Of a stretch of DNA of 64,000 bases, positions 8,496-58,587 are shown piece by piece. Every line of letters begins with the position of its first letter. Within the stretch, counting starts at the first letter, position 1. Below the pieces are notes generated by a model, which did no database searches, was not told the origin of the DNA, and was given only the letters and a program-made list of their open reading frames with translations. Source of the stretch: Clostridia bacterium (GTDB lineage: Bacteria; Bacillota; Clostridia; UMGS1883); the NCBI GenBank assembly GCA_017411435.1, contig JAFQQD010000014.1:20783-84782 (forward strand), read 5' to 3'. Made by a program: the position numbers and the translations under genes.

Positions 8496-8536
8496 TTAAA
8501 TAAAAATAAAAAATCAAAATTCAGGAGGAAAATGTA

Positions 8537-9442
8537 ATGAACACAATGGAAGAAACAAGAAAATTTTTAGAGACACTCGGTCAGCCCGGAGGAGACCTTT
8601 ATAATCTCCCCGATTCAGAAAAGCGCTTTGACGACGGTTGTCAGTATCGTTTTGAGGTTCCCGGAATTCAGAGCCCCAGCGTTATGAAAGCACTTCTTGA
8701 AGAAGTTGACAGACTTGGCTTCTACATCCACCGCGTAACACAGACAAAGGGTATCTGGACACTTTCAGACGAAGATATCCAGGGTATGGTTGCACTCGCA
8801 AAAGAATATCAGGTAGAACTCGTACTCGCAGTTGGTCCCCGTGCTACAACAGATACAAGTGCATCTGTTAAGAGCCCCGAAGGCGTAAGAATGGGCTACC
8901 GTCTCCGCGGTCAGGACCAGGTAGTAAGAGCAATCGAAGATGTACGCCGTGCAGCTCGTCTTGGCGCTCGTACATTCCTTATCTATGATGAAGGTTGTCT
9001 CTGGGCACTTGGTAAGGCTCGTGAAGCAGGTCTTCTTCCCGAAGATTGTAAGTTCAAGATGTCTGCTCACTCAGGTCACGGCAACCCCTGTAGTGCAAAG
9101 CTCCTTCAGGATATCGGTGCTGACTCATTCAATATCGTGCGTGACTATCAGCTTCAGCATCTTGCAGCAGTTCGTAGCGCTATCGACATTCCGATTGACT
9201 GTCATACAGAAAACCCCACATCTTCAGGTGGTTTCATCCGTCACTACGAAGTTCCCGAAATGATTCGTGTTGCATCTCCCATCTATCTTAAGACAGGTGG
9301 CTCAGTTGCACAGACACACAGCTGGGATTCTACAGAAGCAGATGCTAAGAAGCGTGCTAAGCAGGTTATGCTCGTTAAGCGTGTAATTGATTCTTACTAT
9401 CCCGAAGCAACATACTCACCCAAGGGATCAATCAAGCACTAA
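8537..9442 (+). CDS. U32-peptidase-like TIM-barrel protein of unknown function
   Basis: RFEVPG, IHRVTQTKGI, DEG, ID.HTE and P(I)YLKTG pattern recalls proteins annotated 'peptidase U32'; strong RBS aggagg. Confidence 0.55.
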   Translation: MNTMEETRKFLETLGQPGGDLYNLPDSEKRFDDGCQYRFEVPGIQSPSVMKALLEEVDRLGFYIHRVTQTKGIWTLSDEDIQGMVALAKEYQVELVLAVGPRATTDTSASVKSPEGVRMGYRLRGQDQVVRAIEDVRRAARLGARTFLIYDEGCLWALGKAREAGLLPEDCKFKMSAHSGHGNPCSAKLLQDIGADSFNIVRDYQLQHLAAVRSAIDIPIDCHTENPTSSGGFIRHYEVPEMIRVASPIYLKTGGSVAQTHSWDSTEADAKKRAKQVMLVKRVIDSYYPEATYSPKGSIKH

Positions 9443-41558: not shown

Positions 41559-41864
41559 AAAATGACGAGGAGTTAGAGGCGTGCTCTAAAGTAATGTCGG
41601 TAAGCGTCAAGCGGTGTAACTACTGAAGTTGCACCGCTTGACCTTATGAAAGGAAAGAAACTTGTTTGAAAGCAGTATGCCGCTATGGTAAACAGAAAAG
41701 AATTTGCAAGAAATGACACGATGAAAGATATTTATACTAAGCGTTGTGTTTGCAGCCGCGCCGAAGATTCAAGAAGATTTGCTGTGAAACAGAATAAGCC
41801 CGAACATACAAGCGAAAATCAGCTTGCATATTCGGGCTTAATTTGTATCTTAAAATCCGCACAT

Positions 41865-41893
41865 TTGTCAAAAAGAAATTATTGGAATATACT
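41865..41893 (+). promoter_or_regulatory. Putative sigma-A promoter of the recombinase
   Basis: TTGTCA-17 bp-TATACT. Confidence 0.55.
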
Positions 41894-41975
41894 ATGTGAA
41901 GCAAATCTTTGACAGCTTCACGGATATACTTTATGAAAATGGTAGAATATATACAGAAGAAAGGAAGTTGTTAAA

Positions 41976-42827
41976 ATGAAATTATTAACCAAGGAACTAA
42001 TTCAGAAATTCAAAATTTATTTAATCAATGAAGAAAAAGCGGAAGCGACCATTGAGAAATATATGCGAGATATATGCGCATTTATGGAGTGGATTTGCGA
42101 GAAGGAAGTGTGCAAGGAGTATGTTTTGCATTACAAAAAAGAACTTATAGAAAAATATGCTCCAGCAAGTGTAAATTCGATGCTTTCGTCACTCAATGCA
42201 TTTTTTGCTTACAATGAATGGTATGAACTCAGAGTAAAATCCATTAAAATTCAAAAGCAAATATTTAGTGCTAAAGAGAAGGAACTTACAAAAGCGGAAT
42301 ATGAAAGGCTTATCAATGCCGCAAAGAGTAAAAACAACAAAAGATTATATTATCTAATGCAGACTATTTGTTCCTGTGGCCTGAGAGTATCGGAATTGAA
42401 ATTCATTACAACAGATGCCGTAAGGCGTGGACAAGCAACAATTAACTGCAAGGGAAAGATGAGAATTGTTATTTTGCCAAAACAGCTTTGCAAAATGCTC
42501 GCAGTTTATATGAAAGAAAACAATGTAAAAAGCGGCTCCGTGTTTGTAAGCAAAAACGGAAGACCGCTTAACAGGTCAAATATATGGTCTGATATGAAAA
42601 AACTCTGTGAATCTGCCGGAGTTTCCAAAGATAAGGTATTCCCTCATAATCTCAGACATCTTTTTGCAAGAACATATTACTCTCTTCAAAAAGATATAGT
42701 AAGACTAGCTGACATCTTGGGTCATTCAAGCGTAAATACTACGAGAATATATACTATGGAAAGTGGAGATGTTCACAGAAAGCAAATTCAAAAACTAGGG
42801 TTACTCCTGTGTAATAATACATTATAA
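41976..42827 (+). CDS. Tyrosine recombinase (Xer-like, no arm-binding domain); probable invertase
   Basis: Complete catalytic set GLRVSE, KGK, HNLRH, LGH, TTRIY; 283 aa. Confidence 0.93.
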   Translation: MKLLTKELIQKFKIYLINEEKAEATIEKYMRDICAFMEWICEKEVCKEYVLHYKKELIEKYAPASVNSMLSSLNAFFAYNEWYELRVKSIKIQKQIFSAKEKELTKAEYERLINAAKSKNNKRLYYLMQTICSCGLRVSELKFITTDAVRRGQATINCKGKMRIVILPKQLCKMLAVYMKENNVKSGSVFVSKNGRPLNRSNIWSDMKKLCESAGVSKDKVFPHNLRHLFARTYYSLQKDIVRLADILGHSSVNTTRIYTMESGDVHRKQIQKLGLLLCNNTL

Positions 42828-42849
42828 CATAATTTGTATTATGTTATAA
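42822..42849 (+). other. Recombination site L (dif-like 11-6-11)
   Basis: ttataacataa-tttgta-ttatgttataa; perfectly palindromic arms. Confidence 0.85.
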
Positions 42850-42882
42850 CATCACAGACACTAAACCTAATTATACAGTATT

Positions 42883-42911
42883 ATTATAGCATGCAAAGGT
42901 AGAAAAGTCAA
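42883..42911 (-). promoter_or_regulatory. Invertible sigma-A promoter, pointing leftward (OFF orientation for the surface operon)
   Basis: Minus strand TTGACT-17 bp-TATAAT with extended -10 TG, between the two inverted sites. Confidence 0.8.
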
Positions 42912-42975
42912 TGATTTGCAATTAATTTACATAATTTTATATTTCTTTCGGATATTTGAACAAAAATAGACAACG

Positions 42976-43022
42976 AAAAATAGGCCAATGTAATAATTTC
43001 TGACAACATTGGTCTTTTTTTC
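42976..43022. terminator. Terminator-like hairpin inside the invertible segment
   Basis: aaaaa-taggccaatgt...acattggtct-ttttttt. Confidence 0.55.
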
Positions 43023-43072
43023 GTGTGCAAATTGACACATATGCCCTATACAAGGAAAATATATCAATAACT

Positions 43073-43100
43073 ACACTACATAATACAAATTATGTAGTAA
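43073..43100 (-). other. Recombination site R (dif-like 11-6-11), inverted relative to site L
   Basis: acactacataa-tacaaa-ttatgtagtaa; spacer is the reverse complement of the site L spacer. Confidence 0.85.
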
Positions 43101-43234
43101 CTGTCAGTGGATAAAACTATGTATATAAAATTAAAAAAGCAAAGGGGGTTAAACCATGGAAAGGCTTGATAGTAGCTAGTTATTCTTATCATGGAAACTC
43201 AACAAGTAAGACATTTAGAAAGGAACATGCAAAC

Positions 43235-46200
43235 ATGAAATCTAAAAAAATTATAGCTTGGATATTGTTTATGGCAATGCTTGTTACAATGATACCAAGC
43301 TCACTTGTCTTTGCGGCAACAGATGGTGCCGCTGTACTGTCAACTGCTTCGATGACTAGAGATGCTATTGAGGCAGTTACAGGAAAAGGTTTCAAAGTAG
43401 AAAATGGTACAGATTTTCCGCTTTTGAACAACAAAAATGCTGGAATGTTTGATTCTTCGGTTACAGATATTACATATTTTAGAAGAACACAGGACATTAT
43501 TATCAAAGCTGAGTCTGCAGATGGACAATTTTACGATGCAGATGGTAATGTACCTGAAGGTACTTTAAAAATTGCCTACAAAGATGTTTCAGGAAATTTA
43601 CTTAAATTGGACGAAACTAACGGATTTGAATTAAGAGAATTAAAAGCAGGTGAAGATGCTTGGATAGAAATTCATCCAAATCCTTCAATTTGTGATGCCC
43701 AAGTTACAATTTATAATCTTGGTAAATTTTGGACAGAGGCAGAGCCAGAAGATAAATTCAAATTGACAGCATCTGAAATTGCTACAGCTGATCATATTAT
43801 TACAGCACATTTATTTAATGCGATTGGTGATCAGTTCGCAGGTTACATTTCGATTAAAGCGGTAGATAGCAACGGGAAAGTACACGAAACAGATTATCCG
43901 GTTGTTGCTGATGGTCAGTATCCTTCTTCAAATATTTCTACTGTTACGACAAGACATAATTACGGCGAATACAATGTTGGAACTTTACCTACAGTGGAAG
44001 ACACTTTTATTGCAAGTACCGATTTTGAAGAAGCGTTTGATTACGAAAAGTATTCCGATGATGCAGGTAATACTATGCATCCTTATGTAAGCTTAAGACA
44101 TCCGGAAGTTAATAAAGCTGATTTAAAAAAAGCTTTGCAACATGCAGACGAAACTGTATGGACGATGAATGACGTTACAATCGAATCTATTACAGTTTTA
44201 GATGAAGAAGTTACTTCTGGAATTGCCGACGTTAAATACTATATTGATAATATTCAGGATGTAGATAAGATTGATGTTGAAGTGGCTCACACAAGTACAT
44301 CGGTAAATATTACTGATGATTTGGCATATGATGCAAGTTTAAAACAGTGGAATTATACTACACCTATCACAATTTCTGATGAAGGCATGACAATCTTAAC
44401 ACTTGTGATTGAAGACAACGCAGGGCTTGTTAAGACAAACAGATATTATTTCTTTATTGACAAGGAAGCTCCCGTAGCAAAGTTTAATCTTGTTGAATTA
44501 AATAAGAATGTTAAGAGCGATGTTTCGTTATTTACTGTTGCTGATGTAGTAACAAACAGACAACAGGCAATAAATATGGAAGCTAGCACTGATAATAAAG
44601 TTGCAGGTGTTACTTTTGTTTCTGAATTACGCGCAAAAGATGATGCAGGTGATAAGGTTATCATAACAAACGATAAAAAGTATCAGTACCGCTTACTTGC
44701 AACTAAAGTTGGCGAGGTTGCAAAAGATACAGATGGTGACGGTGACAACGATGTTCCGGCAGATTATACCGACGTTGTTGTTGACAAAAAAGGAAATGAT
44801 TTAAGCGGTTGGAAAGTTTGGACCGGCGAAACAGAAACCCCTGTTATAGATAAAGAATTTGATGGTATTGTTCAGGTGCGTGTTCAGGATAGAGCAGGTA
44901 ACTGGTCTTCTATCGTTTCAACAACAAGCGATGGAAAAGAAACAATAATTACAGATAACACTAACCCTGTAATTGATGTTAAAGAGTATGCTCTTAACTC
45001 AAATGCTGATACAAGCGGCAATACCGCAGATGAAATTATTAATGGTACTGCTACAGATATCTTGGTACACAGTGGCGAAACTGAAGAAACCAAGGGTGAA
45101 ATTGAAAACGAAGTTATTCATACAACCACAGGCGATGAAGCTCCTTGGATTAATGATTCTGCAGTATTAGAAGTAAAGATTACTGATGAGGATCTTGTTA
45201 ACGCAATCCGTTCATCCGGTCTTAACAAAGGTCAGATTAATGTAAAAGCAGAATTCAACGCCGAAAATGAGAACAAAAAGATTAAAATCTGGAACAAAAA
45301 TGGTGTTGATAAGAAGAATATTGATGATTCTTTCAACCTTACAGAAGATTATATTTTCGGAACAGAGACTGATAAAGATTTAACATTCTATGTTGAATAC
45401 GAAGGAACTGGTGTTGTTGATATCACTGTTTCTGTTAAAGACCAGGCTGATGTAAATGATGCTGATGTTTTCTCATCAATTTATAAGACTCAGCTTCGAG
45501 TTGATAAAATTAATCCTTACATTATATATAAGGGATACGATATCACAGATGATGCCGAGAAAGATTTATTGAAAGCAAACAACGAAAAAGTTGATTACGA
45601 AGTTCGTAATATGCCCTGGGGACCAAACAGTCAGGTTCTTGAAGTTGTTGTGAAAGATGATGATATCACTCCGGTACAGTCAAAAACTAAAAATATAAAA
45701 TTCAACGCTGACAAAGCATTAGATTTGTATAAGTTTAACGGTGATAAATTTACAAAAGTTAAAACTTGTGGCGCAGGCAGTAATAACATCGTATTACTTG
45801 GTAATTGCGAAGAGCTTCCTAATGAAAAGTATGAAGCTAATGTTGGTTATAAGTTCTATCTCGTATATGAAGGTACAGGTGTTGCAAAGGTTGAATTCTT
45901 TGCAGATGATTCAGCTAAAGAGCCTAATGTAAGGGATTATCCTTCTATCGCAACAGCTGCCGATGCAGAACCCGTATTGTACGATGCAATGCTTCGCGTT
46001 GATAAAATCAACCCTGAAATTAAAAATGTTACTCTTGTTCAAACATCTGATGATGTAAATGACAGTATTTCTTTATTTACAATTAATAAGACAGATGATG
46101 TTGAAGTTAACACAAGAAAGAAAATGAAGGTAATATTTGAAATTGTTGATAACAATTCTGCAAATGATGTTCTGGATGGAGCGAATAGTGAACAGTCTGG

Positions 46201-49200
46201 CGTTAACATTCAGGACGAATATCTTGATACAGATTTAATCGATGTTTGCGGTAAATATGTTGTTAATGATAAGGAACATCTATATGAAAATGTGGATGAT
46301 CCCACATATGTAACAAATGGTGCAAATGATATAGCGGCAGATCCTCATATTGATTTCATTCTTATCCCTGCCGAAATAGGTGTTGTTGACAGTAAGGTTG
46401 GTGGCAAGTTCTTAGTTGAACTTCCAGTAAAGACAGATAATGACAGTATAAAAAAATGGGTCGATGACAGTATTGCTAAATGGGAAGAAGAAAAAATTTC
46501 TGTTACATGGCAGAATGCATCATGGGAAGATGGTGGAATTGTTATTCCCAATGAATTTCAGGGTGCAATCGTTCTTAGAACAATTGACCGTGTAGGTAAT
46601 ATAGATTATTCAAAACCTATCACATTTGTTGCAGAATCAAGAGAAGCTATAATTGAATTCAATCCACAGGCAGGCTTTATCTATTCACAGAACAACTACG
46701 GTTGGTCAAAACGTAACAATGATTATGTTGAAATTCGTGTGAAAGATAATAATGAAACAGCAGTTGCTGATGCATGGATTGAAAACGTATTCATCAAAGT
46801 TACTGACTTTGAAGGTAATGAAATGGATGCAGAATTTGCATACACTTTAGATGGCACAACCGCTGTAAATGTTTCAAAATATAATTATAAAGCATTAGCA
46901 GATAGCGGGAAATACCATGTTGATTATGGATATGATGTTATCGATGGTAAAGGACTGGTCGAAACAACAATTCGTGATGAAGAAGGTTATATTCATCTCG
47001 GTTATGTAAAAGTATCTGAAAGTGCAAAGATTGAGGTTACTATCTTTGATAAAGCAAAAGCAAACGATGTCGAATACACAGGCAATAAAACGACTGCCAC
47101 ATGGATCACACGATTTGATCGCACCGCTCCAATAATTGGTGAATTTAGCTTGGAAAAATTAGATTCAGATGGTTATTCATTAGTATTGCAGGCGGACGAT
47201 GCTGAATCAGGTATGGCTCCTGCTATTACAGATAGCGAATACAACAATTATAAAGCAGAAAATATTCCAAATAATATTTTTGGCACAGAAACATCATATT
47301 TATATAATGTAAAAAATGACGTTGATGAAGAAGTTGTAAGATTTAATAGCGGAGTATTTAACCAAGGACAGTATGAACTTCCCGGTTTGCAGTATGCTCT
47401 TCTTGAAGAAGGAGATACACTTGAAGATATTGAACCTTGGGAATTTGAAAAAGATCCCAACGGACAGATTGATAAAGTTGACGCATTTGATGATAATGGT
47501 TACCACAGAGGAAAATTTGGCAAAACGCTTGTATGGCATAACTATAAGGATGCTATGACAAAAGTTGTTGATGGAGATTTTAATGGCTACATCGTTGTTA
47601 GAGCAATTGACAGAGCAGGTAACATAACAGTAATGGGTTATGCTCCAACACTTGACGTTACAGCAGATGATGCTTGGAAAAATGAAACACAATATATTAA
47701 TGTTAAAGCACTTGATATCAGTGGGGATACTGTTAACAAAGTAGAATATTATGGTAACAATGGATTGCTGTATCCTGAAGGAGCGAAAAGAGATATAACA
47801 ACAGAAGCTCTCAGCGGTGAAGGTGCATTTGTTGAAGTGGTTGAGGAAGGTATAACAAAGGTTATCGTAAGAGCCTCTAAATCATATGCTGATGAAAAAG
47901 CAATTACTCTTGGTGAAAGCGGATTGAGAAATGATATCTGGGAAGGCAATCTTATTCTTGGCAATCCTACAGCTACAGGATATGAAGATTGGAAATATCA
48001 GATTACTGATGTTAAGATTGATAAAACTGCTCCTACATTTAACTTTGAACTTAAAGGTGATACAGCAACCGAGAAAGATAAAAAGTTAACAGAGACAGAT
48101 GTAGCAGTTGGTCCAATCACAATTAACATAGTAGATGCAAATGATCCTACTCCCAACAAAGATGATGACACAATGTCTCATATTGCATCAGGAATTAAAA
48201 CTGTCGATGGAATGGAAATTATTGAATGGTGTGCGATTCCTGAAGGTTCTGAGGAGGAAATTTGGAAGAACTATAACGAGGATGGCGGCGAAGTTGATTT
48301 TGCAAACTTTACAGGAACAATAAAGATTCGTGTGACTGATAATGCCGGCAACGTAACGGAAAAATCACAAAGAATTAAAATTGACAGTGCATTGCCGATT
48401 ATCAGTATTTTAAAATCTCATAATGAAAAGTGTAGTCATGAACCTGTAGATGTGTTTGTAACAGTATCTGAAAGTGTTGAGTTTTCTGATGTGAAAAAGG
48501 TTGAATATACAATTACACATCCAGTTTGCGTTAAGGAAGAGTGCACCACAGAAGATTGTCCTTTGGAAGATCATCGCAAGGAAACAGGTAGTCTTCCGTT
48601 GACAGGTGGTACAATTTCTGTTGACAGAGAAGGTATAACAACAATTAAAGTAACTGCTTATAATAAAGCAAATGTTCCTTCAGAACCAGCAGAAACAAAT
48701 GTAATTATTCATTATGAAGATTTAGCTGTTCCAAGCCTTACAACAGTAGAGGATAAAACAATTAAATCAGGCGACTGGATATTTGATAATACAACAACCG
48801 CAATTACTGGTGTAGTGAATGTTAAATATCCGATAAGTGATACACTTAGTGATGTTGATAATAGTCGCATGGTTTACTATTCATTAAATGGTAGCACTTG
48901 GGAGAAAGTTGTAGATAATAGAATTACAGGCTTAACCGCTGGTGCAAATACTATTAGACTTCAGGCACGTTGTGAAAATTGCATTTGCGAAAGTGATGTA
49001 GTTACATACGTTGTTAATTATCACAATCCAGAAGAGATGCCCAACATTTCCGTAACTTATGATGATAACGAATCTTCAAATTGGCAGAAAGAAGCAGCTG
49101 TTGTCTCAATTGCTGCAAACCGCGGCGAATCTCCTGCAGAAATTCAGTCAATTTCTTATGAGCTTGGTTCTGGTTCTGCCACACTTCCTAAGTATTATTT

Positions 49201-50797
49201 AGGAAAAGACGGTGGTAATATAGTAATCCAGGAAGAAGGAATATGGAATATTAAGAAAATTATCATCACCATGGAATCTGGCGTTGAGTATATTGTTGTT
49301 GACGAGGCACCTGATTTCTATAACAAACTTGAAGTTTATGTGGATCAGGAACCTTCTGGTACTACAATTGCTAAAATAGATAGAACTGCGCCAAAGGTTG
49401 AACCCGGTGCATTCAAACTGGTAGATACTGAAGAGAAAGCATTAACCCTGTTCGGCATGGAAGATGTTAAGAGCGATAAACAGCTTAAACTAGAAATTGA
49501 CAAAAACAAAATCTCAGACAATTGCACAACAGAAAAAAGTTCTCTTGGATATTACTATGCAGTTGTTCCGAATGGAGCTGCAGGATATAACTGGAAGTCT
49601 GCTGAAAATGGCGATGTTATTATAACAGAAGCATTTGAAGGAACAGTTCTTTTCAAGGTTGTTGACTTAGCAAATAATGAGACCATTGTTTCTCAGACAG
49701 TAATTACAGAAGGAAACAAACCTGAAGTTTCATTAACATATTCCATGGGATGGTCAACAGAAGCCGTAGCTATTACAGTAGATGTTTTTGACAGCGGTGT
49801 AACTTCTGGAATCAGCGACATCCATTATGTATTAAAGGACAAAAACGGAAATATACTTCCCGGTTATGATGGATATGTTATTGCAAGTGAGGGCGTCAAT
49901 AATTGGGCAAAACTCAATACAAGAGGCGGACAGATACTTATTAATGAAGAGGGTGAATACCAGTTAGAGGTAACAGCTATAGATAATCTTGGTAATGAAA
50001 GCACCATGCAGACAGTAGATATCAAAATAGACAAAACCGCTCCTTCATACTCAGGTTCTGTCACACTCAGCTTGTTCAACATCCACACAATCAATAACTG
50101 GGACGATATTCATGACGGTTGGACATACAACCATCCTGTAAGCATTTCGGGTATTAATGACAGTATTTCCGGAATTAAGGATATCAAAATCAAGGTAACA
50201 ACTGAAAGCGGTGTTACTAACGAAACAACACTTAATGCAAGTCAGACCGGCACATCATTCTCTACAGACGGTAAGTATGATTTGACAATTACTGATAACG
50301 CAGGAAATGTAAGAAATATCAGTTTTGTAATCGACAAAGATTTAGAAAATGTAATCAATGTTGTAGGTGTAGATGAATTTGGTAAGGTAAATGTTGCTGT
50401 AACAGACGGTGATGATATGCTTACATTCTACAGCATGGAAGATGAAAGCGATGCAGTAGAAACTAAGATGCATAAAACCGGTGTTACAGATCAGCTTTGG
50501 GATGGCAGAACCGGTGTTAGATACATCTACGGTAGGGATGATGCAGGCAAGACAACTAATAAATTGCATGTGATTGTTGCACCAAGTAACAACTATGAAA
50601 TCACACTTTCAAGCTTGATGGAAACAGAGAGCGCTGCGACACCTAACAGATACTTAAACATTGATGCTGACGGTGAAAGTGTAACAATAAAGAAGACCGC
50701 AGAACTTTTCAATACTAATATCAATAAAAATATTTTTGCCGGATCAATCGTTGAAATCAACGAAGATGGCGTATACTCAATTACAACCAACGACTAA
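43235..50797 (+). CDS. Giant (~2,520 aa) secreted Ig-like repeat surface protein/adhesin
   Basis: RBS gaaagga, Sec signal peptide, many 'D.AGN...ID(K/R)..P' beta-sandwich repeats; no SLH, LPXTG or TM anchor at the C-terminus. Confidence 0.85.
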   Translation: MKSKKIIAWILFMAMLVTMIPSSLVFAATDGAAVLSTASMTRDAIEAVTGKGFKVENGTDFPLLNNKNAGMFDSSVTDITYFRRTQDIIIKAESADGQFYDADGNVPEGTLKIAYKDVSGNLLKLDETNGFELRELKAGEDAWIEIHPNPSICDAQVTIYNLGKFWTEAEPEDKFKLTASEIATADHIITAHLFNAIGDQFAGYISIKAVDSNGKVHETDYPVVADGQYPSSNISTVTTRHNYGEYNVGTLPTVEDTFIASTDFEEAFDYEKYSDDAGNTMHPYVSLRHPEVNKADLKKALQHADETVWTMNDVTIESITVLDEEVTSGIADVKYYIDNIQDVDKIDVEVAHTSTSVNITDDLAYDASLKQWNYTTPITISDEGMTILTLVIEDNAGLVKTNRYYFFIDKEAPVAKFNLVELNKNVKSDVSLFTVADVVTNRQQAINMEASTDNKVAGVTFVSELRAKDDAGDKVIITNDKKYQYRLLATKVGEVAKDTDGDGDNDVPADYTDVVVDKKGNDLSGWKVWTGETETPVIDKEFDGIVQVRVQDRAGNWSSIVSTTSDGKETIITDNTNPVIDVKEYALNSNADTSGNTADEIINGTATDILVHSGETEETKGEIENEVIHTTTGDEAPWINDSAVLEVKITDEDLVNAIRSSGLNKGQINVKAEFNAENENKKIKIWNKNGVDKKNIDDSFNLTEDYIFGTETDKDLTFYVEYEGTGVVDITVSVKDQADVNDADVFSSIYKTQLRVDKINPYIIYKGYDITDDAEKDLLKANNEKVDYEVRNMPWGPNSQVLEVVVKDDDITPVQSKTKNIKFNADKALDLYKFNGDKFTKVKTCGAGSNNIVLLGNCEELPNEKYEANVGYKFYLVYEGTGVAKVEFFADDSAKEPNVRDYPSIATAADAEPVLYDAMLRVDKINPEIKNVTLVQTSDDVNDSISLFTINKTDDVEVNTRKKMKVIFEIVDNNSANDVLDGANSEQSGVNIQDEYLDTDLIDVCGKYVVNDKEHLYENVDDPTYVTNGANDIAADPHIDFILIPAEIGVVDSKVGGKFLVELPVKTDNDSIKKWVDDSIAKWEEEKISVTWQNASWEDGGIVIPNEFQGAIVLRTIDRVGNIDYSKPITFVAESREAIIEFNPQAGFIYSQNNYGWSKRNNDYVEIRVKDNNETAVADAWIENVFIKVTDFEGNEMDAEFAYTLDGTTAVNVSKYNYKALADSGKYHVDYGYDVIDGKGLVETTIRDEEGYIHLGYVKVSESAKIEVTIFDKAKANDVEYTGNKTTATWITRFDRTAPIIGEFSLEKLDSDGYSLVLQADDAESGMAPAITDSEYNNYKAENIPNNIFGTETSYLYNVKNDVDEEVVRFNSGVFNQGQYELPGLQYALLEEGDTLEDIEPWEFEKDPNGQIDKVDAFDDNGYHRGKFGKTLVWHNYKDAMTKVVDGDFNGYIVVRAIDRAGNITVMGYAPTLDVTADDAWKNETQYINVKALDISGDTVNKVEYYGNNGLLYPEGAKRDITTEALSGEGAFVEVVEEGITKVIVRASKSYADEKAITLGESGLRNDIWEGNLILGNPTATGYEDWKYQITDVKIDKTAPTFNFELKGDTATEKDKKLTETDVAVGPITINIVDANDPTPNKDDDTMSHIASGIKTVDGMEIIEWCAIPEGSEEEIWKNYNEDGGEVDFANFTGTIKIRVTDNAGNVTEKSQRIKIDSALPIISILKSHNEKCSHEPVDVFVTVSESVEFSDVKKVEYTITHPVCVKEECTTEDCPLEDHRKETGSLPLTGGTISVDREGITTIKVTAYNKANVPSEPAETNVIIHYEDLAVPSLTTVEDKTIKSGDWIFDNTTTAITGVVNVKYPISDTLSDVDNSRMVYYSLNGSTWEKVVDNRITGLTAGANTIRLQARCENCICESDVVTYVVNYHNPEEMPNISVTYDDNESSNWQKEAAVVSIAANRGESPAEIQSISYELGSGSATLPKYYLGKDGGNIVIQEEGIWNIKKIIITMESGVEYIVVDEAPDFYNKLEVYVDQEPSGTTIAKIDRTAPKVEPGAFKLVDTEEKALTLFGMEDVKSDKQLKLEIDKNKISDNCTTEKSSLGYYYAVVPNGAAGYNWKSAENGDVIITEAFEGTVLFKVVDLANNETIVSQTVITEGNKPEVSLTYSMGWSTEAVAITVDVFDSGVTSGISDIHYVLKDKNGNILPGYDGYVIASEGVNNWAKLNTRGGQILINEEGEYQLEVTAIDNLGNESTMQTVDIKIDKTAPSYSGSVTLSLFNIHTINNWDDIHDGWTYNHPVSISGINDSISGIKDIKIKVTTESGVTNETTLNASQTGTSFSTDGKYDLTITDNAGNVRNISFVIDKDLENVINVVGVDEFGKVNVAVTDGDDMLTFYSMEDESDAVETKMHKTGVTDQLWDGRTGVRYIYGRDDAGKTTNKLHVIVAPSNNYEITLSSLMETESAATPNRYLNIDADGESVTIKKTAELFNTNINKNIFAGSIVEINEDGVYSITTND

Positions 50798-50866: not shown

Positions 50867-52279
50867 ATGAAAAAAATTATTTCCTGCATTCTTGCAGTTA
50901 CAATGCTATGTTGCAGTGCTGTCGCTTTTGCTGACGAAAAAGAGGTTGTAATTGATACTGAAGTACCTGTATTTGATGACCTTTCAGATAATACAAGTTA
51001 TAAAAACAGCAAAGATGTATATATCGCTGATTTGAGCCCAGTTCACTATATTGTGTTAAGAAAAGACAACAGTAAAAGTACGACATTTCAATTTACCAAT
51101 TCACAAGACGAGCTAATAACAAAAACCTTTAATGGGTATAGCGAAATTGGTAAAGACCACAATATTTCTTGTGCAGATGAGTTTATAAAGATCTATTCAG
51201 CCACAAGTGCTGGTTCGTATATGGTCTATGCAACTGATATATACGGGCATGACATTGCTGTCAGATTCACTATCAAATCCAGTTCTGATGGAGATTCTGG
51301 CGGCGGCGGAGGCAGCGGAGGTGGAGACAACACTCCCATTAAAATCAGACAGCCGTACGCCAACGGAGAACCTGAGAATACAAGAGGAAATCTTATAGCA
51401 GGTGAAAAAATAAAATTAAGCTCCGATACGGGAAATGTTAAAATATATTACACAACCGATGGAACGACACCAACAAGTAAAAGCAACCTTTATAATAGTG
51501 AAAAAGGAATTATCCTGACAGAAGGCCAAATATTAAAAGCAATTGCTATCAAAAAAGAAATGTCAAGCGATATTTCCGAATGGAAATGTATTGTTGCTCC
51601 AACAGAAAAACCGCAGATAGGTGATTCTGTTGTTAAAGGTGCATTGGAAACAGAAGACCATATTGTGTATATGACCGGTTATCCGGATGAAACATTTGGT
51701 CCAAATAAAAATATGACTCGTGCAGAAGTAGCAACAATGTTTGCGCGGCTTATGAAAGAAAAAATGGATGCCGATGCCGTATATGAATCTTCATTTGCGG
51801 ATGTTACTCCTGATGCATGGTATTATAACTATGTTGGTTATATGGAAAAATTCGGAATTATTACCGGTTATGAAGATGGAACATTCCGACCTCAAAACAC
51901 TATAACAAGAGCTGAATTTGTAACAATGGCAAGTCGTTTTGCAACTATAAGCCAAGAATATGAGTGCGACTTTACAGATGTTACAACCAAGCACTGGGCA
52001 TATGAATATATTGCATTTGCTGCAGAAAATGGATGGGTTGGAGGCTACGAAGACAATACTTTCAGAGCTGATAATACTATCACAAGAGCAGAAGTTGTAA
52101 CAATTGTAAATAATATGCTTGTCAGAAGTGCTGACGAATCTTATGTAAACCCAAACAAAGCATCACTTACATTGTTTGCTGATGTAGACGCGACACATTG
52201 GGCTTATTATGACATCATTGAGGCAACAAACGAGCATACTTATTCTGTAAGTGGTAACAAAGAAAAATGGAATGAGTAA
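50867..52279 (+). CDS. Secreted protein with Ig-like domain, Fn3-associated/CHB_HEX_C domain and 3 C-terminal SLH domains
   Basis: Signal peptide, G-rich linker, IYYTTDGTTP, GY.D.TF.P...ITRAE repeats. Confidence 0.9.
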   Translation: MKKIISCILAVTMLCCSAVAFADEKEVVIDTEVPVFDDLSDNTSYKNSKDVYIADLSPVHYIVLRKDNSKSTTFQFTNSQDELITKTFNGYSEIGKDHNISCADEFIKIYSATSAGSYMVYATDIYGHDIAVRFTIKSSSDGDSGGGGGSGGGDNTPIKIRQPYANGEPENTRGNLIAGEKIKLSSDTGNVKIYYTTDGTTPTSKSNLYNSEKGIILTEGQILKAIAIKKEMSSDISEWKCIVAPTEKPQIGDSVVKGALETEDHIVYMTGYPDETFGPNKNMTRAEVATMFARLMKEKMDADAVYESSFADVTPDAWYYNYVGYMEKFGIITGYEDGTFRPQNTITRAEFVTMASRFATISQEYECDFTDVTTKHWAYEYIAFAAENGWVGGYEDNTFRADNTITRAEVVTIVNNMLVRSADESYVNPNKASLTLFADVDATHWAYYDIIEATNEHTYSVSGNKEKWNE

Positions 52280-52291
52280 GGTGATTTTTGT

Positions 52292-52936
52292 TTGAAAAAA
52301 AGTTATTTTAAGTTAATAACTGTCTTGATATGCTTGTTAGTTGTGACAAACGGCACTCTAACAAAGGCGAAAGGATGGCCTTTGTACACAGATGTTGATG
52401 GGGATTTCTGGGCGTATGACGCAATTAAATACTCTACTGACAGACAATGGTTTAGTGGGTATTCCGACGGAAATTTTTTGCCAGACAAACTTATTACACG
52501 CGCAGAAGCGGCGAAAGTTTTAGCTGTGTATGAATATAGAAATCGTGAGTATCCGTCTATAAGCAGTTTTACAGATGTTAGTATAGATATGTGGTATGCA
52601 CCATATATCGAGGCTACAGATGATTTGTTTCCAAATGTGTCTCCCGGCTGCGCATTTAGGCCGAATGATTTCATGACAAGAGAGGATACGGTATATGCCA
52701 TTGTAAATGCAGCCAGACTTAACAATAAGGTTAAGTATGTTGATGTTTCCGTGGTAGATAGTTTTTGCGATAGTAGTACGGTAGAGCAGTTGTTGAAACC
52801 TTATATTGCTATAGGTATACAGACATCTTTAATATCAGGATACAGTGATGGGACATTTTGCCCCAAAAAACCTCTTACGCGTGCTGAATTTGCAACTCTT
52901 TTGTATAGAGCTGCGAATATCAGCAAGCTAGACTAA
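52292..52936 (+). CDS. SLH-domain-only protein
   Basis: TTG start after aaggtga; three SLH repeats (ITRAE, MTRED, LTRAE). Confidence 0.85.
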   Translation: MKKSYFKLITVLICLLVVTNGTLTKAKGWPLYTDVDGDFWAYDAIKYSTDRQWFSGYSDGNFLPDKLITRAEAAKVLAVYEYRNREYPSISSFTDVSIDMWYAPYIEATDDLFPNVSPGCAFRPNDFMTREDTVYAIVNAARLNNKVKYVDVSVVDSFCDSSTVEQLLKPYIAIGIQTSLISGYSDGTFCPKKPLTRAEFATLLYRAANISKLD

Positions 52937-52978
52937 GATTGTGACCATGTATGAATTAATTAGGAAAGGAAGATTTAC

Positions 52979-54928
52979 ATGAAAAAGTTATTTTGCTTAA
53001 TTACTGCAGTAATATTGGCAGTTTCTATGTCAGTAACATCACTTGCAGCACCGACTTATGGTTCTGAATGGGATGGCTACTATCAAGTTGCTCCAACAAG
53101 ATTTTCAGATGTACCTTCGACACATTGGGCGTACAACGCCATTATGCAGGTATATCAGAAGAACTGGTTTAGCGGATATCCTGACGGTTCCTTCAGACCT
53201 AATGCTTCTATCACAAGAGCAGAAGCACTTAAAGTTTTCGTTGTATTTTTAGGCCTCGATTATCAGAGTGTTGATTTATCAAATCTTTCATATTCTGATA
53301 TATCTGCCAGCGACTGGTATGCAGCATATGTTGAAGCAGGAAAGGATCTTTTCCCTGTGCATACAACAATTCAGGGAAAAACACCCTTCAATCCCAATAT
53401 GCCTGTAACAAGAGAAGATACAATCTACGCACTTGTAAAGGCTCTTGGTTGCGATGTTGATGTGAAATATCCTGACCAGTCTGTGCTTAATATGTTTAGC
53501 GACAAATCAAGTATTTCCGGTTCAATTAAAGACGAATTTGCAATTGCTCTTACCGAAGGCTTGGTATCAGGTTTCCCGGATGGAACAATCCGCGCACAGG
53601 CAGCTCTTACAAGAGCGGAATTTGCAACACTTCTTCTTCGTGGTACAGAACACGGATTCCATGATAGATATCAGGCTAAAATTTCTACTGTAACCGTTAC
53701 ACCTGCAAACAACACTGAAATGACAGTAGGTGAAACAATTACATTATCAGCAAGAGCAACATATACTGACGGAACAAATCAACCATATACTTCCTTGTCA
53801 CCATATGATGCTAGCGGAAATGGCGTTGTATCTGTAAATGGAACAAAAATTACAGCCCTCAAAGAAGGTAAAGCTGAAATTAAGTATAATGATTCTTACC
53901 TCAAGAACGAAACTTTGACAATTATCGTTAAGAATCCTACAGACGCTCCTGTAGTTAAGGTTACAGGCTATGATGAAATCACAGAAGAAGAAAGCATGAC
54001 TGTTAGCGGAACTGTTACAGATAAGAACGGCAGCGTTGATTTAACATGTAACGGTAAGGATGTTTCTGTGAATTCTGATGGCAGCTTCAAAACAACAGTT
54101 GCACTTAAGGTTGGCAGAAATGAAATCAAGTTTGTTGCTACAAACATTTACGGACTTGAGACAGAAAAGACTATTGTTATAGAAAGAGAAAAAGCCGAAG
54201 AAGAAAAGCCTGTTGTTCCCACTGATGATGGGAAGAAGGAAGAAGACGATAAAAAAACTCCCTCATCTTCCACAACTGTAAGTGGTGAAGACGGAACTCC
54301 TTATTTAACATTTGATAAGGAAACAGGAACAATTACAAAATGTGGAACAAGTGCTGCTGATATCGAAATCCCTGAAAAAATCGAAGGTGTAAATGTATAT
54401 AACATCGGTGAAGGAGCTTTTGCAGATTGCACATATCTTGAGAGCATTGAATTCCCTTCAACCTTAAAAAGCATAAAAGCAGATGCATTTAGTGGTTGTA
54501 TCCGTCTTGTTGAAGTTGAAATCCCCGAAGGTGTTACATCAATTGGTGCAGGCGCATTTTACGGTTGTGTATCTTTAACAGATGTAATCATTCCCGAAGG
54601 CGTTAAGAAAATTGCTGATGAAACATTTTTTGGTTGCAAGAGACTGGTAAATATTTCACTTCCCGAAGGACTTAGAACAATCAGCGCAAGCGCATTTGAT
54701 GGTTGCAAGAGCTTAACAGAAATCGAACTTCCCGAATCCACAACTAAAATTGAAAATGGAGCATTTACTGATTGTGGTAGTCTTAAAAAGATTGTAATTC
54801 CTGACAGTGTAACATCAATTGCTGATGATGCATTTAATGGTTGTAATGCAATTACAATATATGCTTCTGTCAATTCATATGCAATAGAATATGCAAAAGA
54901 AAAAGGTATCGCTTGGGAAATCATCTAA
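52979..54928 (+). CDS. SLH x3 + Ig-like + BspA-type leucine-rich repeat protein
   Basis: SLH motifs; C-terminal 'I...AF..C..L..I.IP' TpLRR repeats. Confidence 0.92.
   Translation: MKKLFCLITAVILAVSMSVTSLAAPTYGSEWDGYYQVAPTRFSDVPSTHWAYNAIMQVYQKNWFSGYPDGSFRPNASITRAEALKVFVVFLGLDYQSVDLSNLSYSDISASDWYAAYVEAGKDLFPVHTTIQGKTPFNPNMPVTREDTIYALVKALGCDVDVKYPDQSVLNMFSDKSSISGSIKDEFAIALTEGLVSGFPDGTIRAQAALTRAEFATLLLRGTEHGFHDRYQAKISTVTVTPANNTEMTVGETITLSARATYTDGTNQPYTSLSPYDASGNGVVSVNGTKITALKEGKAEIKYNDSYLKNETLTIIVKNPTDAPVVKVTGYDEITEEESMTVSGTVTDKNGSVDLTCNGKDVSVNSDGSFKTTVALKVGRNEIKFVATNIYGLETEKTIVIEREKAEEEKPVVPTDDGKKEEDDKKTPSSSTTVSGEDGTPYLTFDKETGTITKCGTSAADIEIPEKIEGVNVYNIGEGAFADCTYLESIEFPSTLKSIKADAFSGCIRLVEVEIPEGVTSIGAGAFYGCVSLTDVIIPEGVKKIADETFFGCKRLVNISLPEGLRTISASAFDGCKSLTEIELPESTTKIENGAFTDCGSLKKIVIPDSVTSIADDAFNGCNAITIYASVNSYAIEYAKEKGIAWEII
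53159..53950 (+). repeat. ~790-bp paralogous block (copy 1), collinear with 55183-55974
   Basis: Long identical DNA stretches at constant offset 2024. Confidence 0.85.
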
Positions 54929-54945
54929 AATATATAAATGATATG

Positions 54946-54973
54946 AAAAGGCGGCATACTCTGCCGCCTTTTC
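54946..54973 (+). terminator. Hairpin/terminator between the LRR and VWA genes
   Basis: gaaaaggcggca-tactc-tgccgccttttc. Confidence 0.65.
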
Positions 54974-54996
54974 AAAAGTAGAAAGGAGTGCTGAAT

Positions 54997-57114
54997 ATGA
55001 AATGTAAAGCAAAGAAAATTATAACCCTATTGCTTACTGTAACAATGCTTTTATCAACAGTAAATGTATTTGCATTGGAATATGGTGCAGAATGGGGCGG
55101 GTATGTTGATGTAGACACACAAAAGTATTCAGATGTACCGCGTTCCCATTGGGCGCATGATGCTATTGTAAGAGCAAGTGAAAAGAACTGGTTTAGCGGA
55201 TATCCTGACGGTTCCTTCAGACCTAATGCCTCTATCACAAGGGCTGAAGCACTTAAAGTTTTCGTTGTATTCTTAGGCCTCGATTATCAGAGTGTTGACC
55301 TGTCAGATCTTTCATACAGTGATATATCTACCAGTGACTGGTACGCACCCTATGTTGAAGCAGGAAAGGACCTTTTCCCTTCACATACAACAATCCAGGG
55401 CAAAACCCCCTTCAATCCTAATATGCCTGTGACAAGAGAAGATACAATCTACGCGCTTGTAAAGGCTCTTGGTTGCGATGTTGATGTAAAATATACTGAC
55501 CAGTCTGTACTTAATATGTTCAGTGATGCCAACAGTATTTCAGGCAACATTAAATCAATATTCTCAATTGCATTGATGCATGAACTTGTATCCGGTTTCC
55601 CGGATGGAACAATCCGTGCACAGGCGGCTCTTACAAGAGCGGAATTTGCAACACTTCTTCTTCGTGGTACAGAACATGGATTCCACGACAAATATGAAGC
55701 TAAAATATCAAAAGTAACTGTTTTTCCCGCATCACCGGTAGAAATTGAAATTGGTGAAAGTGTTACACTCTCGGCAAATGCAACATATACGGATGGAACA
55801 GTTAAACCATATACAAGTCTTCAGCCTTATGATGCTGAAAACAACAGTGTTATATCTTTAGAAGGAACAACAATCACTGGACTTAAAGAAGGAACAACAA
55901 CAATTAAGTACAATGATTCATACCTTAAAAAAGACAGTTTGACAGTCATCGTTAAGAAACCTACAGATGCTCCTAAAATAAAGGTTACAGATTATCCCGA
56001 CACAACTGATGAAAGCAGAGTAACAATTTCCGGTGCTGTTATAGATAAAAATGTTGCAACTGTTGACTTTACATGCAATAGTAAAGATATTTTGTTAAAT
56101 GCTGACGGAAGCTTTAGCACAATCGTATCACTGAAGCCAGGTGTAAACACTATTAAATTTACAGCAGTCAATGAATATAATATGTCTGCTGAAAAAACAA
56201 TAGAAATTACAAGAACAAGTGCACCGAGTATTTTCATCACAAAATACAAAGAACGCACTACTGCTTCAAAAACAACTGTTGAAGGTATAATTACAGACGG
56301 TGATCTTTCTACAGTAAAACTTTCATGCAACGGTGCAGATATAAGTATGAATGCAGATGGTAGCTTTGCTACAGAAGTTAACCTGAAAATGGGCAAAAAT
56401 CCTTTTACATTTGCTGCAACAAATCAATATGGAAAAACAGCACAGCAGGCGATAGAAATTACACGATATGAAATTGAAGATTCAGGGAAAATTGAGGATA
56501 AACCTGATGTAGAAAAAACTGAAGGTAAGGTTGAACTTGTTTTTGTAATTGATGCAACAGGTTCTATGTGGGATGAAATCGGAAATGTTAAAACAAATAT
56601 CAGCGAATTTGCAAAATATTTGGAAGAAGAAGGCGTAGACCTCAAAATGAGCGTAGTTGAATACAGGGATATTACCTGTGGTGAGCCAACTAAAGTTCAT
56701 AAATACTCCGGTAGTACATGGCACACAGATTCAGAAAGCTTGATATCCACATTAGCGTCTATTGGTGCTTCAGGCGGTGGAGATAATCCCGAAAGCGTTC
56801 TTGATGGATTTGGTCATGTTTTAGATAACAGACATATGGATTGGTCAGATGATGCATTTAAGTTTGCTGTTCTTCTTACAGATGCAGACTATAAGACAGA
56901 AAATACATACAGCTATAGCAGCTTAGAAGAAATTGCAAATGAACTTGCAGCGGTAAGAATGACTACTTCTGTAATCACATCAACATCCCTTTTTGACACC
57001 TACAATGTTTTGAATAGTAAAACAGGTGGTTTGCAAATTGATATAACATCAGACTTTGATAAGGCTTTATCAGACTTGGCTGATAAAATTACTGGTAGAT
57101 CTTTGAGAGACTAA
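54997..57114 (+). CDS. SLH x3 + Ig-like repeats + von Willebrand A domain protein
   Basis: SLH block as in 52979; MIDAS FVIDATGSM, GGGD.PE, LLTDA. Confidence 0.92.
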   Translation: MKCKAKKIITLLLTVTMLLSTVNVFALEYGAEWGGYVDVDTQKYSDVPRSHWAHDAIVRASEKNWFSGYPDGSFRPNASITRAEALKVFVVFLGLDYQSVDLSDLSYSDISTSDWYAPYVEAGKDLFPSHTTIQGKTPFNPNMPVTREDTIYALVKALGCDVDVKYTDQSVLNMFSDANSISGNIKSIFSIALMHELVSGFPDGTIRAQAALTRAEFATLLLRGTEHGFHDKYEAKISKVTVFPASPVEIEIGESVTLSANATYTDGTVKPYTSLQPYDAENNSVISLEGTTITGLKEGTTTIKYNDSYLKKDSLTVIVKKPTDAPKIKVTDYPDTTDESRVTISGAVIDKNVATVDFTCNSKDILLNADGSFSTIVSLKPGVNTIKFTAVNEYNMSAEKTIEITRTSAPSIFITKYKERTTASKTTVEGIITDGDLSTVKLSCNGADISMNADGSFATEVNLKMGKNPFTFAATNQYGKTAQQAIEITRYEIEDSGKIEDKPDVEKTEGKVELVFVIDATGSMWDEIGNVKTNISEFAKYLEEEGVDLKMSVVEYRDITCGEPTKVHKYSGSTWHTDSESLISTLASIGASGGGDNPESVLDGFGHVLDNRHMDWSDDAFKFAVLLTDADYKTENTYSYSSLEEIANELAAVRMTTSVITSTSLFDTYNVLNSKTGGLQIDITSDFDKALSDLADKITGRSLRD

Positions 57115-57171
57115 AATCACTGTGGTTGCTTCATTCATTTGGAGCAACCACACTTTATCATGAGGTACATA

Positions 57172-58587
57172 ATGAAAAAAATTTTTGTAACCCTTATATT
57201 TTTTATTTGCACTATTATTTGCATTAGCGTTAATGCAGAAAATGAAAGCAATGGTTATATTGTAAAAGTGAAAGAAGATTCGATTTCATTAATGTGCGTT
57301 ACTGATGAAATCACACATATAAGCGATAATCTATACCGTGCAGATAATCTAAATGACTTATATAGCGTTATACCTGCAGATTATATTGAAACTATTTTCC
57401 CTGATTACAAATTTGAATTATTTGACTTAGATTATCCGGATATAACCAGCGATATAGAATTTGATTCTCAATGGTATCTAGATAAAATTAATGCTGATTC
57501 TATCAGAAAAAAGGGCCTGTCAGGGGAAGGCGTGAAAATTGCTGTAATTGATAGCGGAATAAATTTTTCACACCCCGATTTTAATCAATCAAATATTTTA
57601 CAAGGATATAACTGCACTTTTGGCGCAGAAGATATAAACGATTATAACGACAATGTGGGGCACGGAACGATGGTTGCAGGCATCATTGCAGCCCAAACAG
57701 ACAATGAACTTGATATTGCAGGGATAGCAAGCAATACTCAAATTATTCCTATAAAAATAACAGACACAAATTCTCTAAATATTTCGAGTATATTTTTGGG
57801 ATTGGAAAAAGCATTAGAAACAGATTGCGATATAATTAATATGAGTTTTGGAGGGGCAATAACCGATGAAGAAGCTCTATCTGTTTTGAAAAGTTATATA
57901 GATAAAGCAGAAGAAAAAGGCATTATTGTTGTTGCTGCGGTTGGAAACAGTGGTCATACTGATAATGTTATGAATTATCCTGCCGGTTTTGACAATGTTA
58001 TTGGTGTTGGTTCTGTAGATGAGGATTTAACATCATCGTATTTTTCTCAAAAAAATGAAAGCGTGTTCATATCTGCTCCGGGTAATAATATTGTATCACT
58101 GTTCAAGAATAATTCTACAACAACAGGATTGGGAACATCGTTATCTGCACCTATTGTTACTGCGGTTATATCGATTATAAAAGAGGTTCGCCCGGAGTGT
58201 ACATTGCAGGAAATAAAAGAATTACTAAAAAATACTTCTTTGGATTGTGGAGCTAAAGGTTACGACACAAGCTATGGATATGGCGTATTAAACTTAGAGG
58301 GAATTGTTGAAGAAATAAGTGGTGATATACCGGAATTTATTGTTTCACAGGGTATTATAAATGCTAAAAAAAGAGTACATATACATAACAATTCTTCAAA
58401 AAACATATTAGCAAATGCCTTTTTTGCTTCATACGGAGACAATAATTGCTTGGAAAATATGGAGATCATTGAAAATATCAATCTAATTGATGGCGTAACT
58501 AATATTATTAACGAAAAAACTTATGGAAGCTTTTTCGTGTGGGACAAAAACCTCCGACCATATACAAAGAAGTATTCAATAAAATAA
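57172..58587 (+). CDS. Secreted subtilisin-like (S8) serine protease
   Basis: IAVIDSG, HGTMVAG, AAVGN, GTSLSAP catalytic motifs; signal peptide. Confidence 0.93.
   Translation: MKKIFVTLIFFICTIICISVNAENESNGYIVKVKEDSISLMCVTDEITHISDNLYRADNLNDLYSVIPADYIETIFPDYKFELFDLDYPDITSDIEFDSQWYLDKINADSIRKKGLSGEGVKIAVIDSGINFSHPDFNQSNILQGYNCTFGAEDINDYNDNVGHGTMVAGIIAAQTDNELDIAGIASNTQIIPIKITDTNSLNISSIFLGLEKALETDCDIINMSFGGAITDEEALSVLKSYIDKAEEKGIIVVAAVGNSGHTDNVMNYPAGFDNVIGVGSVDEDLTSSYFSQKNESVFISAPGNNIVSLFKNNSTTTGLGTSLSAPIVTAVISIIKEVRPECTLQEIKELLKNTSLDCGAKGYDTSYGYGVLNLEGIVEEISGDIPEFIVSQGIINAKKRVHIHNNSSKNILANAFFASYGDNNCLENMEIIENINLIDGVTNIINEKTYGSFFVWDKNLRPYTKKYSIK

Follow-up and report, generated by a model that had tools for sequence, protein, structure and literature searches.

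A candidate promoter inversion switch with dif-like sites in front of a giant surface-protein gene in gut Clostridia

Can a short promoter-bearing segment next to a tyrosine recombinase gene flip, and does its orientation decide whether a giant surface-protein gene is transcribed? This question is raised by a locus in the genome of a Clostridia bacterium of the UMGS1883 lineage (GCA_017411435.1, here G000). The locus lies within a window of 64,000 nucleotides (nt), the whole stretch of DNA that we analyzed (contig JAFQQD010000014.1, positions 20,783 to 84,782 of the forward strand), where a gene for an Xer-like recombinase of 283 amino acids (aa) is followed by two inverted sites, called L (proximal) and R (distal), with a promoter-like sequence between them, and then by a gene for a 2520-aa protein (Table 1). 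A sequence-only reading had described this arrangement as an invertible promoter captured in its OFF form, and we found the sites, their reverse-complementary spacers, the recombinase and the promoter all in place. Comparison with related loci strongly supports the idea of inversion, since paired sites recur beside most homologous recombinases, both promoter orientations occur, and the segment is exactly inverted between sister species. The locus is therefore very probably a working inversion switch, or inverton of the fimS type, for the giant surface-protein gene.

Paired inverted sites beside a recombinase gene

Both sites have the 11-6-11 layout described for dif in PMC5357621, and their inner arms, CATAA/TTATG around a 6-bp center, are those of the classical dif sites in a table of PMC2731167; the label "dif-like" thus appears fair. 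The recombinase stop codon falls within the L site, whose arms form a perfect palindrome, and the 6-bp spacers of L and R are exactly reverse-complementary. In the repeat search, the pair appeared as an inverted repeat of 23 nt that is 91% complementary, with its halves 233 nt apart. The 18-bp core ACATAA-TTTGTA-TTATGT has two exact copies in the window, on opposite strands (42827-42844 and 43078-43095), while the third match has 3 mismatches; shuffled sequences averaged 0.15 matches, and none of the 100 had as many as 3. Across the whole 2.0-Mb assembly (75 contigs, 42% G+C), ACATAA-N6-TTATGT is present in four copies only, namely the window pair and a pair on contig C20. Two marks of an inverton are found here, a short segment bounded by inverted recombination sites and, by consensus match, a promoter inside it.

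The pair on C20 (L001 547-9153) belongs to a second copy of the same switch design. Its recombinase (280 aa, 8311-9153, minus strand) is 70% identical to that of the window, and its sites at about 8273-8300 (center TTTCGA) and 8011-8038 (center TCGAAA) are 262 bp apart, with reverse-complementary centers and the cores ACATAA-TCGAAA-TTATGT and ACATAA-TTTCGA-TTATGT. Between them, a promoter-like sequence, TTGACA-17-TGcTATACT, points to the recombinase, and beyond the switch lies a gene for a 2334-aa secreted protein with a weak Peptidase_M26_N match. Kinship between the 2334-aa and 2520-aa proteins was considered and rejected, as the best match had an E of 0.18 and lay within the signal peptides. 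L001 also has a third, degenerate site at about 7833-7850, with one arm mismatch, the center TCGAAG and the orientation of the proximal site; it is found 187 nt past the distal site, inside a 95-aa open reading frame (ORF) between the switch and the giant gene, and might permit a second, nested inversion.

We searched 41 genomes (G000 and 40 relatives) and found homologues of the recombinase (E <= 1e-40) in 27 of them, G000 counted, from which 30 loci were fetched. A wider set came from a family-alignment scan of species-representative genomes, which matched at least 598 stretches, at least 592 of them confirmed by tblastn as relatives with the peptide patterns of the family; we analyzed the best 80 of these and set aside 10 with less than 400 nt of downstream flank, leaving 70. 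Since the sets partly overlap, the 30-locus and 70-locus counts are not independent. At least two exact CATAA-N6-TTATG sites follow the recombinase stop codon in 26 of the 30 loci, with the first site no more than about 25 bp from the stop in nearly all of the 26 (the exception is L013, at +72) and the last site 220-340 bp further on; in the wider set, 62 of 70 loci have at least two sites. The first and last centers are reverse-complementary in 26/26 and 61/62 loci (exception L126), though the centers themselves vary from locus to locus, with 30 distinct centers among the 62 paired-site loci. A strong promoter, scored by its match to the sigma-A consensus (at least 11.5 on our scale) and typically reading TTGACA-17-TGnTATAAT, is present in 57 of the 62 segments.

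The best 80 of the at least 592 relatives all come from metagenome-assembled genomes of uncultured Clostridia from animal and human guts, with Monoglobaceae, Oscillospiraceae, Congzhengia and Feifaniaceae among their titles. The layout is kept at 51% recombinase identity, in records labeled Monoglobus pectinilyticus (L151, NZ_OY725740.1, 335 kb) and Subdoligranulum variabile (L152, OY725857.1), both in the OFF orientation. Both records carry the label "plasmid"; the M. pectinilyticus record looks like a piece of chromosome, since nusG, secE and rpmG are present, and the S. variabile record has 4 annotated features only, none of them within the stretch. No CATAA/TTATG sites were found beside a Pusillibacter homologue (46% identical), and the design is therefore not common to all homologues.

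Could the sites instead be dif or attachment sites of an Xer-dependent mobile module of the IMEX or pdif-module type, which would serve dimer resolution or integration and excision rather than gene control? The dif-like core of the sites would suit such a module, XerS-type systems also keep the recombinase gene beside their site, and pdif modules are bounded by Xer sites (PMC5357621, PMC9947245). However, the supposed module is only about 230 bp long and consists of a promoter and a terminator with no gene, at least two such loci occur per genome, each before surface-protein genes, and inverted sites would yield inversion, not excision. An origin from a phage or plasmid was likewise rejected, as phage matches are at most 44% identical and the best "plasmid" matches are chromosome pieces with nusG, secE and rpmG. 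We give this explanation next to no credence.

The intact recombinase matches PF00589 Phage_integrase over residues 103-261 (106.5 bits against a cut-off of 27.1, E 1.7e-30) as well as a SAM-like N-terminal domain. In an alignment of 16 family members, R137, K159/K161, H224, R227, H250 and Y259 are invariant, and we take these residues, from the family motif, to be the catalytic R, K, H-x-x-R, H/W and Y. The best NCBIfam matches are all below cut-off (XerA, 141.4 bits against 220; XerD, 132.1 against 329.6; XerC, 115.6 against 335.15), so the protein does not qualify as a housekeeping XerC or XerD by the equivalog models TIGR02224/TIGR02225, and the "tyrosine-type DNA invertase" models of NCBIfam are absent among its matches at E <= 1e-10. 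Among solved structures, archaeal XerA and E. coli XerD are nearest. Housekeeping XerC/XerD act at a single dif per replicon to resolve dimers; in G000 there are two switch loci, each with a pair of inverted sites. G000 also encodes an XerD-like protein (314 bits against the cut-off of 329.6, passing the PRK00283 subfamily cut-off) and an XerC-like one; the recombinases of the switches are therefore extra paralogues.

Judged from linkage and adjacency to the sites, the 283-aa recombinase is the likely catalyst. The switch could also be real while the housekeeping XerD-/XerC-like proteins or the C20 paralogue carry out or share the inversion. This would agree with a site core, CATAA-N6-TTATG, identical to that of classical dif (PMC2731167), with the presence of both Xer-like proteins in G000 and with the near-identical arms of paralogous loci. 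On the other hand, the proximal site lies directly 3' of the recombinase gene in 26/30 and 62/70 loci, this linkage persists to the 51% protein identity of the Monoglobus and Subdoligranulum records, and linkage as tight as this usually marks a cognate pair. Moreover, no recognizable sites were found downstream of the recombinases that are C-terminally truncated (L005/L065 in G008 and L039 in G022; 264 and 269 aa, ending ...RIYTMEAV), which may be decayed or locked loci. We consider it unlikely that other Xer proteins take over from, or share the work of, the adjacent enzyme.

Orientation of the segment in relatives and in gut metagenomes

The sequence-only reading had suggested that related genomes be compared for the flipped allele, and both promoter orientations were found among them. 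The promoter points toward the recombinase in 19 and toward the target gene in 7 of 26 loci from the 30-locus set, in 23 and 9 of 32 loci in a further comparison, and in 44 (OFF) and 18 (ON) of 62 loci in the wider set. Ten pairs of loci were compared directly, four of them of opposite orientation (L009/L012, L013/L029, L030/L009 and L011/L029). In all four, the recombinase gene and the downstream flank are colinear, while the stretch between the sites is reversed (PLUS-MINUS-PLUS) and is 72-78% identical over 189-326 nt (78% over 284 nt for L009/L012 and 73% over 326 nt for L013/L029). The occurrence of both orientations in nature, a third mark of an inverton, is thus seen for the family, and at the window locus it is represented by a 12-letter junction only.

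These alignments bear on the alternative that the sites are static palindromes, acting as terminator hairpins or operators without inversion, and that the promoter makes antisense RNA against the recombinase gene. Each site is indeed a hairpin-capable palindrome, the L site stands where the recombinase gene ends, as one would expect of a terminator, and metagenome runs X1 and X2, described below, show a single orientation. But the loops of hairpins need not be reverse complements of each other, and yet they are in 61/62 and 26/26 loci, with at least 30 spacer variants; the stems are AT-rich and have no T-run; and a flipped junction is seen in run X4. Since the segment is known in both orientations, flipped exactly at the sites, the alignments nearly refute this explanation, which we hold to be very improbable.

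Inversion also accords with the loci that have additional sites. In the wider set, 13 loci have at least three sites, and among the three-site loci all four reachable arrangements were found (one proximal and two distal sites or two and one, with the promoter in either direction), which is the pattern that would be expected if inversion can use either copy of a doubled site. A doubled site on one side, with copies 32-41 bp apart, was noted in L006, L008, L018, L021, L028, L040, L087, L088, L092, L093, L107, L112, L118, L129, L133, L139, L140 and L146, and four sites were noted in L133 and L139.

Part of the stretch is held in 14 gut-metagenome runs from 9 studies, all as contigs and none as RNA, and orientation at the window locus was judged on the assembled contigs of four runs, X1 to X4, of which X1 and X2 are possible sources of the genome. 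In both X1 and X2, a single contig covers 42644-44200 with no differences from the assembly, and the assembled form is therefore the main form. "Captured OFF" was accordingly the right description of the majority form, as the promoter faces away from the giant gene in the assembly, X1 and X2. In X3 and X4, contigs break off at 42844, the last base before the two forms diverge. In addition, an X4 contig that aligns from 43078 has TGTGATGTTATA before it, which is the reverse complement of 42845-42856 and unique in the window; this is the predicted flipped R junction, thin but specific evidence for the inverted form. X4 also contains an L068-like relative with the same letters at the junction (L068 being an orthologue of the window locus), so that either organism could be the source of the flipped molecule. 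X3 further showed a joint of 42848 to 43074, in one contig with a 22-letter side, and loose ends whose flanks are unrelated, at 42826 and 43095; a switch of another organism that shares the spacer is their probable source, and we set them aside as evidence. A 247-nt X3 contig (42831-43077) resembles a lone segment, and we give it little weight, as its ends lie off the branch points 42827/43095. The DNA search of the genus yielded a single orthologue, that of G046; it is colinear, hence in the OFF form.

Predicted promoter, terminator and target genes

Table 1. Features of the candidate switch and its surroundings, in window coordinates
Feature	Position	Strand	Basis
Terminator-like hairpin, bidirectional, between MgsA-type ATPase gene and recombinase gene	41795-41840		19-pair stem, minus strand
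Candidate recombinase-gene promoter, TTGTCA-17-TATACT, 10/12	41865-41893	+	consensus match only
Xer-like tyrosine recombinase, intact, 283 aa	41976-42827	+	Pfam domain match
L (proximal) site, ttataacataa-TTTGTA-ttatgttataa, 11-6-11	42822-42849		sequence
Putative invertible segment, 257 bp spacer to spacer	42833-43089		sites; orthologous segments inverted between species
Extended -10 sigma-A-type promoter, TTGACT-17-TGcTATAAT, 11/12 + TG	42911-42883	-	consensus match only
Hairpin GGCCAATGT...ACATTGGTC, A-run before, T7 after	42973-43024		repeat search
R (distal) site, acactacataa-TACAAA-ttatgtagtaa, 11-6-11	43073-43100		sequence
Leader, R site to start codon	43101-43234	+	sequence; L068 comparison
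Mini-ORF, 7 codons, MERLDSS*, behind strong AAAGGGGG ribosome-binding site	43156-43179	+	sequence
2520-aa protein, signal-peptide-like N-terminus, weak Ig-like domain matches	43235-50797	+	ORF, domain search
13-pair GC-rich hairpin just 3' of giant gene, no plus-strand T-run	50811-50840		fold search
Five further same-strand genes	50867-58587	+	ORFs, domain search
Terminator-like hairpin GGCGGCA...TGCCGCC-TTTT between genes 4 and 5, short T-run on coding strand	54944-54974		fold search

In the assembled form, the promoter inside the segment points to the recombinase gene and away from the 2520-aa gene. In the inverted form, the -35 element would come to lie at about 43011 and transcription would start near 43046, some 189 nt before ATG 43235. 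There is one other 11/12 site in 41700-43500, on the minus strand (43277..43250) and without the TG, and no promoter-like site was seen on the plus strand within 43100-43235. A weaker promoter-like site on the plus strand, TTGACA-17-GAAAAT (43032-43060), lies inside the segment and is not conserved in L068. Behind the promoter stands a hairpin that looks like a bidirectional terminator, and a GACCnnT...AnnGGTC hairpin occupies the equivalent place in all 14 segments inspected, out of 69 related ones. In 30/69 loci the -10 element lies 39-40 nt from the site core, and in 18/69 it lies 27-29 nt from it, two classes separated by about one helical turn.

The leader is almost invariant between the window species and L068 over 43101-43180, and the mini-ORF within it is retained there as MERFDSS*. 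Switch and leader together are 92% identical to L068, compared to only 82% for the recombinase protein, and the non-coding part is therefore under strong constraint. A relic of the segment (a half-site, a hairpin and a promoter-like part), oriented opposite to the live one, is also present in L068 at 690-1000, 5' of the recombinase gene. This relic precedes a 179-aa gene with a CCFFGHRKI motif, which recurs in genes that follow the switch of L061, L065 and L066.

The 2520-aa gene, whose ATG is preceded by a AGAAAGGAA ribosome-binding site, is by its position the gene that the switch would control most directly. Of the five genes that follow, four are for wall-anchored proteins with SLH domains, of 470, 214, 649 (with LRR_5) and 708 aa (with VWA), and the remaining one is for a 482-aa S8 subtilase. 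The sequence-only reading had called this row a six-gene operon, and its six same-strand genes, with intergenic gaps of 12-69 nt, were confirmed; a single transcript is only possible, because hairpins interrupt the row after gene 1, where the structure could be a 3' end or an attenuation point, and between genes 4 and 5. After related switches, the first gene in many cases encodes a TetR-type regulator (about 187 aa; 4/4 tested) or, alternatively, an SLH-plus-cohesin protein (2/2 tested), and in 18/38 loci one of the first two ORFs of at least 150 aa is at least 879 aa long.

Based on these features, the switch could work as follows. The adjacent Xer-like recombinase, or possibly another cellular Xer protein, would bind both dif-like sites as dimers and exchange strands within the 6-bp central regions; because these regions are reverse-complementary, the outcome would be inversion of the 257-bp segment. 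In the OFF form, which is the assembled one, the promoter would fire away from the 2520-aa gene and antisense into the recombinase gene, and the antisense RNA would probably end at the terminator-like hairpin at 41795-41840. In either orientation, the terminator would block read-through from the recombinase gene into the target. In the ON form, transcription would begin about 189 nt upstream of ATG 43235 and drive the giant gene, and the transcript would possibly extend to the SLH-protein and subtilase genes. Of this model, the sites, the co-variation of their centers, the two orientations among relatives and the flipped junction in one run were observed; we infer the identity of the enzyme, the activity of the promoter, any antisense effect on recombinase expression and the length of the transcript.

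Several observations weigh against a simple switch of this kind. A recognizable site pair is missing in 4/30 loci (L005 has no site, and L022, L027 and L031 have one each), and 8/70 loci in the wider set have fewer than two sites. Across the switch, only the assembled orientation is seen in contigs of the likely source runs, X1 and X2; the flipped junction amounts to 12 loose letters in one contig of one run; no closer flipped orthologue of the exact locus was found by DNA search in 39 genomes of the genus, including G000; and an exact 28-mer of the conserved leader had 0 matches in metagenome contigs. Furthermore, promoter and terminator are predicted from consensus and fold only, the TTGACA-17-GAAAAT site could give some expression in the OFF form, and the hairpins within the gene row speak against one simple six-gene transcript.

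Known systems, variable centers and meaning for gut Clostridia

Promoter inversion by a tyrosine recombinase is an already known kind of control, with examples in fim, Xer1, RecV and the Bacteroides systems. In the fim system of E. coli, a promoter segment of about 300 bp between inverted repeats is flipped by the adjacent tyrosine recombinases FimB and FimE, turning type 1 fimbriae ON and OFF. Our locus resembles fimS in having a short promoter segment between inverted sites, beside a tyrosine recombinase gene and before surface genes. However, fim relies on repeats of 9 bp flanked by half-sites, on two recombinases that differ in directional bias, and on IHF and Lrp, whereas here we find dif-like 11-6-11 palindromes, one adjacent Xer-like recombinase and a terminator inside the segment.

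The mycoplasmas provide a second comparison. Xer1 of Mycoplasma agalactiae is encoded beside the vpma genes, whose expression is switched by inversions that require it (PMC2268961). As with Xer1/vpma and the related vsa, vsp and mpl systems of mycoplasmas, an Xer-like recombinase is encoded beside surface-protein genes in our locus. In vpma, however, one promoter is moved among several genes, while the cassette described here would flip before a fixed gene row. The cwpV switch of C. difficile acts via a terminator formed in the leader and not through promoter orientation. RecV of C. difficile inverts short segments upstream of cell-wall and surface genes and so causes phase variation (PMC2784873 and PMC5903667), and it is described in PMC5903667 as a master recombinase that acts on several distant sites. 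Unlike RecV with its cwpV, flagellar and other Cdi switches, each switch here has its own adjacent recombinase and its own spacer. Among the Xer-dif systems (XerC/XerD-dif, XerS, XerH and XerA), the closest models and structures are XerA and XerD, the 11-6-11 site and the CATAA/TTATG inner arms are shared, and XerS likewise has its recombinase gene beside its site (PMC5357621). The differences are that our recombinase scores far below the equivalog cut-offs, that each locus has two inverted sites and a genome several loci, and that inversion is proposed rather than dimer resolution.

What appears to be new is a large family of switches, with at least 592 relatives, that combines dif-like arms with diversified central bases. 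In open full texts, among them PMC11602134 and PMC5903667 and excluding supplements and subscription journals, we found no published description of the family or of dif-like inverted sites flanking a Clostridia promoter. Pooling 69 non-identical two-site loci gave the site consensus aCCACATAAT-NNNN-ATTATGTGGt, with 36 distinct proximal centers; since the first and last bases of the 6-bp center are T and A in at least 94% of the loci, the free part of the center is four bases. The arms are near-identical between paralogous loci, and in the 10 genomes with at least two loci, all 17 within-genome spacer pairs differ. By a hand estimate from the center frequencies of the pooled loci, spacers would be identical by chance in about 0.08 per pair, so that zero identical pairs are expected about one quarter of the time and the result is not significant; because chance yields it about one time in four, the within-genome difference is a lead, not a result. 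Descent of the paralogues would account for it as well.

In heterospecific lox and FRT sites, the arms are constant, the centers differ, and only matching centers should recombine. The sites described here are like such engineered variants in that the arms are kept while the centers differ, and the variants are natural; the centers may thus serve to insulate the switches from each other. We tentatively propose, as a combination that we consider possible and also rather doubtful as a whole, that a large family of Xer-derived invertases in uncultured gut Clostridia, which we did not find in print, uses conserved arms with variants of the central four bases as a heterospecific set, and that antisense transcription over the recombinase gene in the OFF form controls switching and gives the approximately 70:30 OFF bias seen in assemblies. 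If this is true, a single chromosome could house several switches whose arms are nearly the same and which do not recombine with each other. The natural center variants with their conserved arms could also be a source of orthogonal recombination sites for engineers.

Much work has been done on promoter inversion as a means of phase variation in Bacteroides, E. coli, C. difficile and mycoplasmas. The uncultured Clostridia of the Monoglobaceae, Oscillospiraceae, Congzhengia, Feifaniaceae and their kin, on the other hand, are common in animal and human guts and have barely been studied for inversion. Since the switch is recognizable from a recombinase stop codon followed by two CATAA-N6-TTATG sites with reverse-complementary centers, its orientation could be scored in existing metagenomes, and the M. 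pectinilyticus and S. variabile records with the same design may offer a route to experiments. The presence of this design before giant secreted proteins, SLH-cohesin anchors and TetR-type regulators predicts that clonal populations of these bacteria would be heterogeneous at their surface, which bears on phage susceptibility, adhesion to plant fiber and mucus, and immune recognition.

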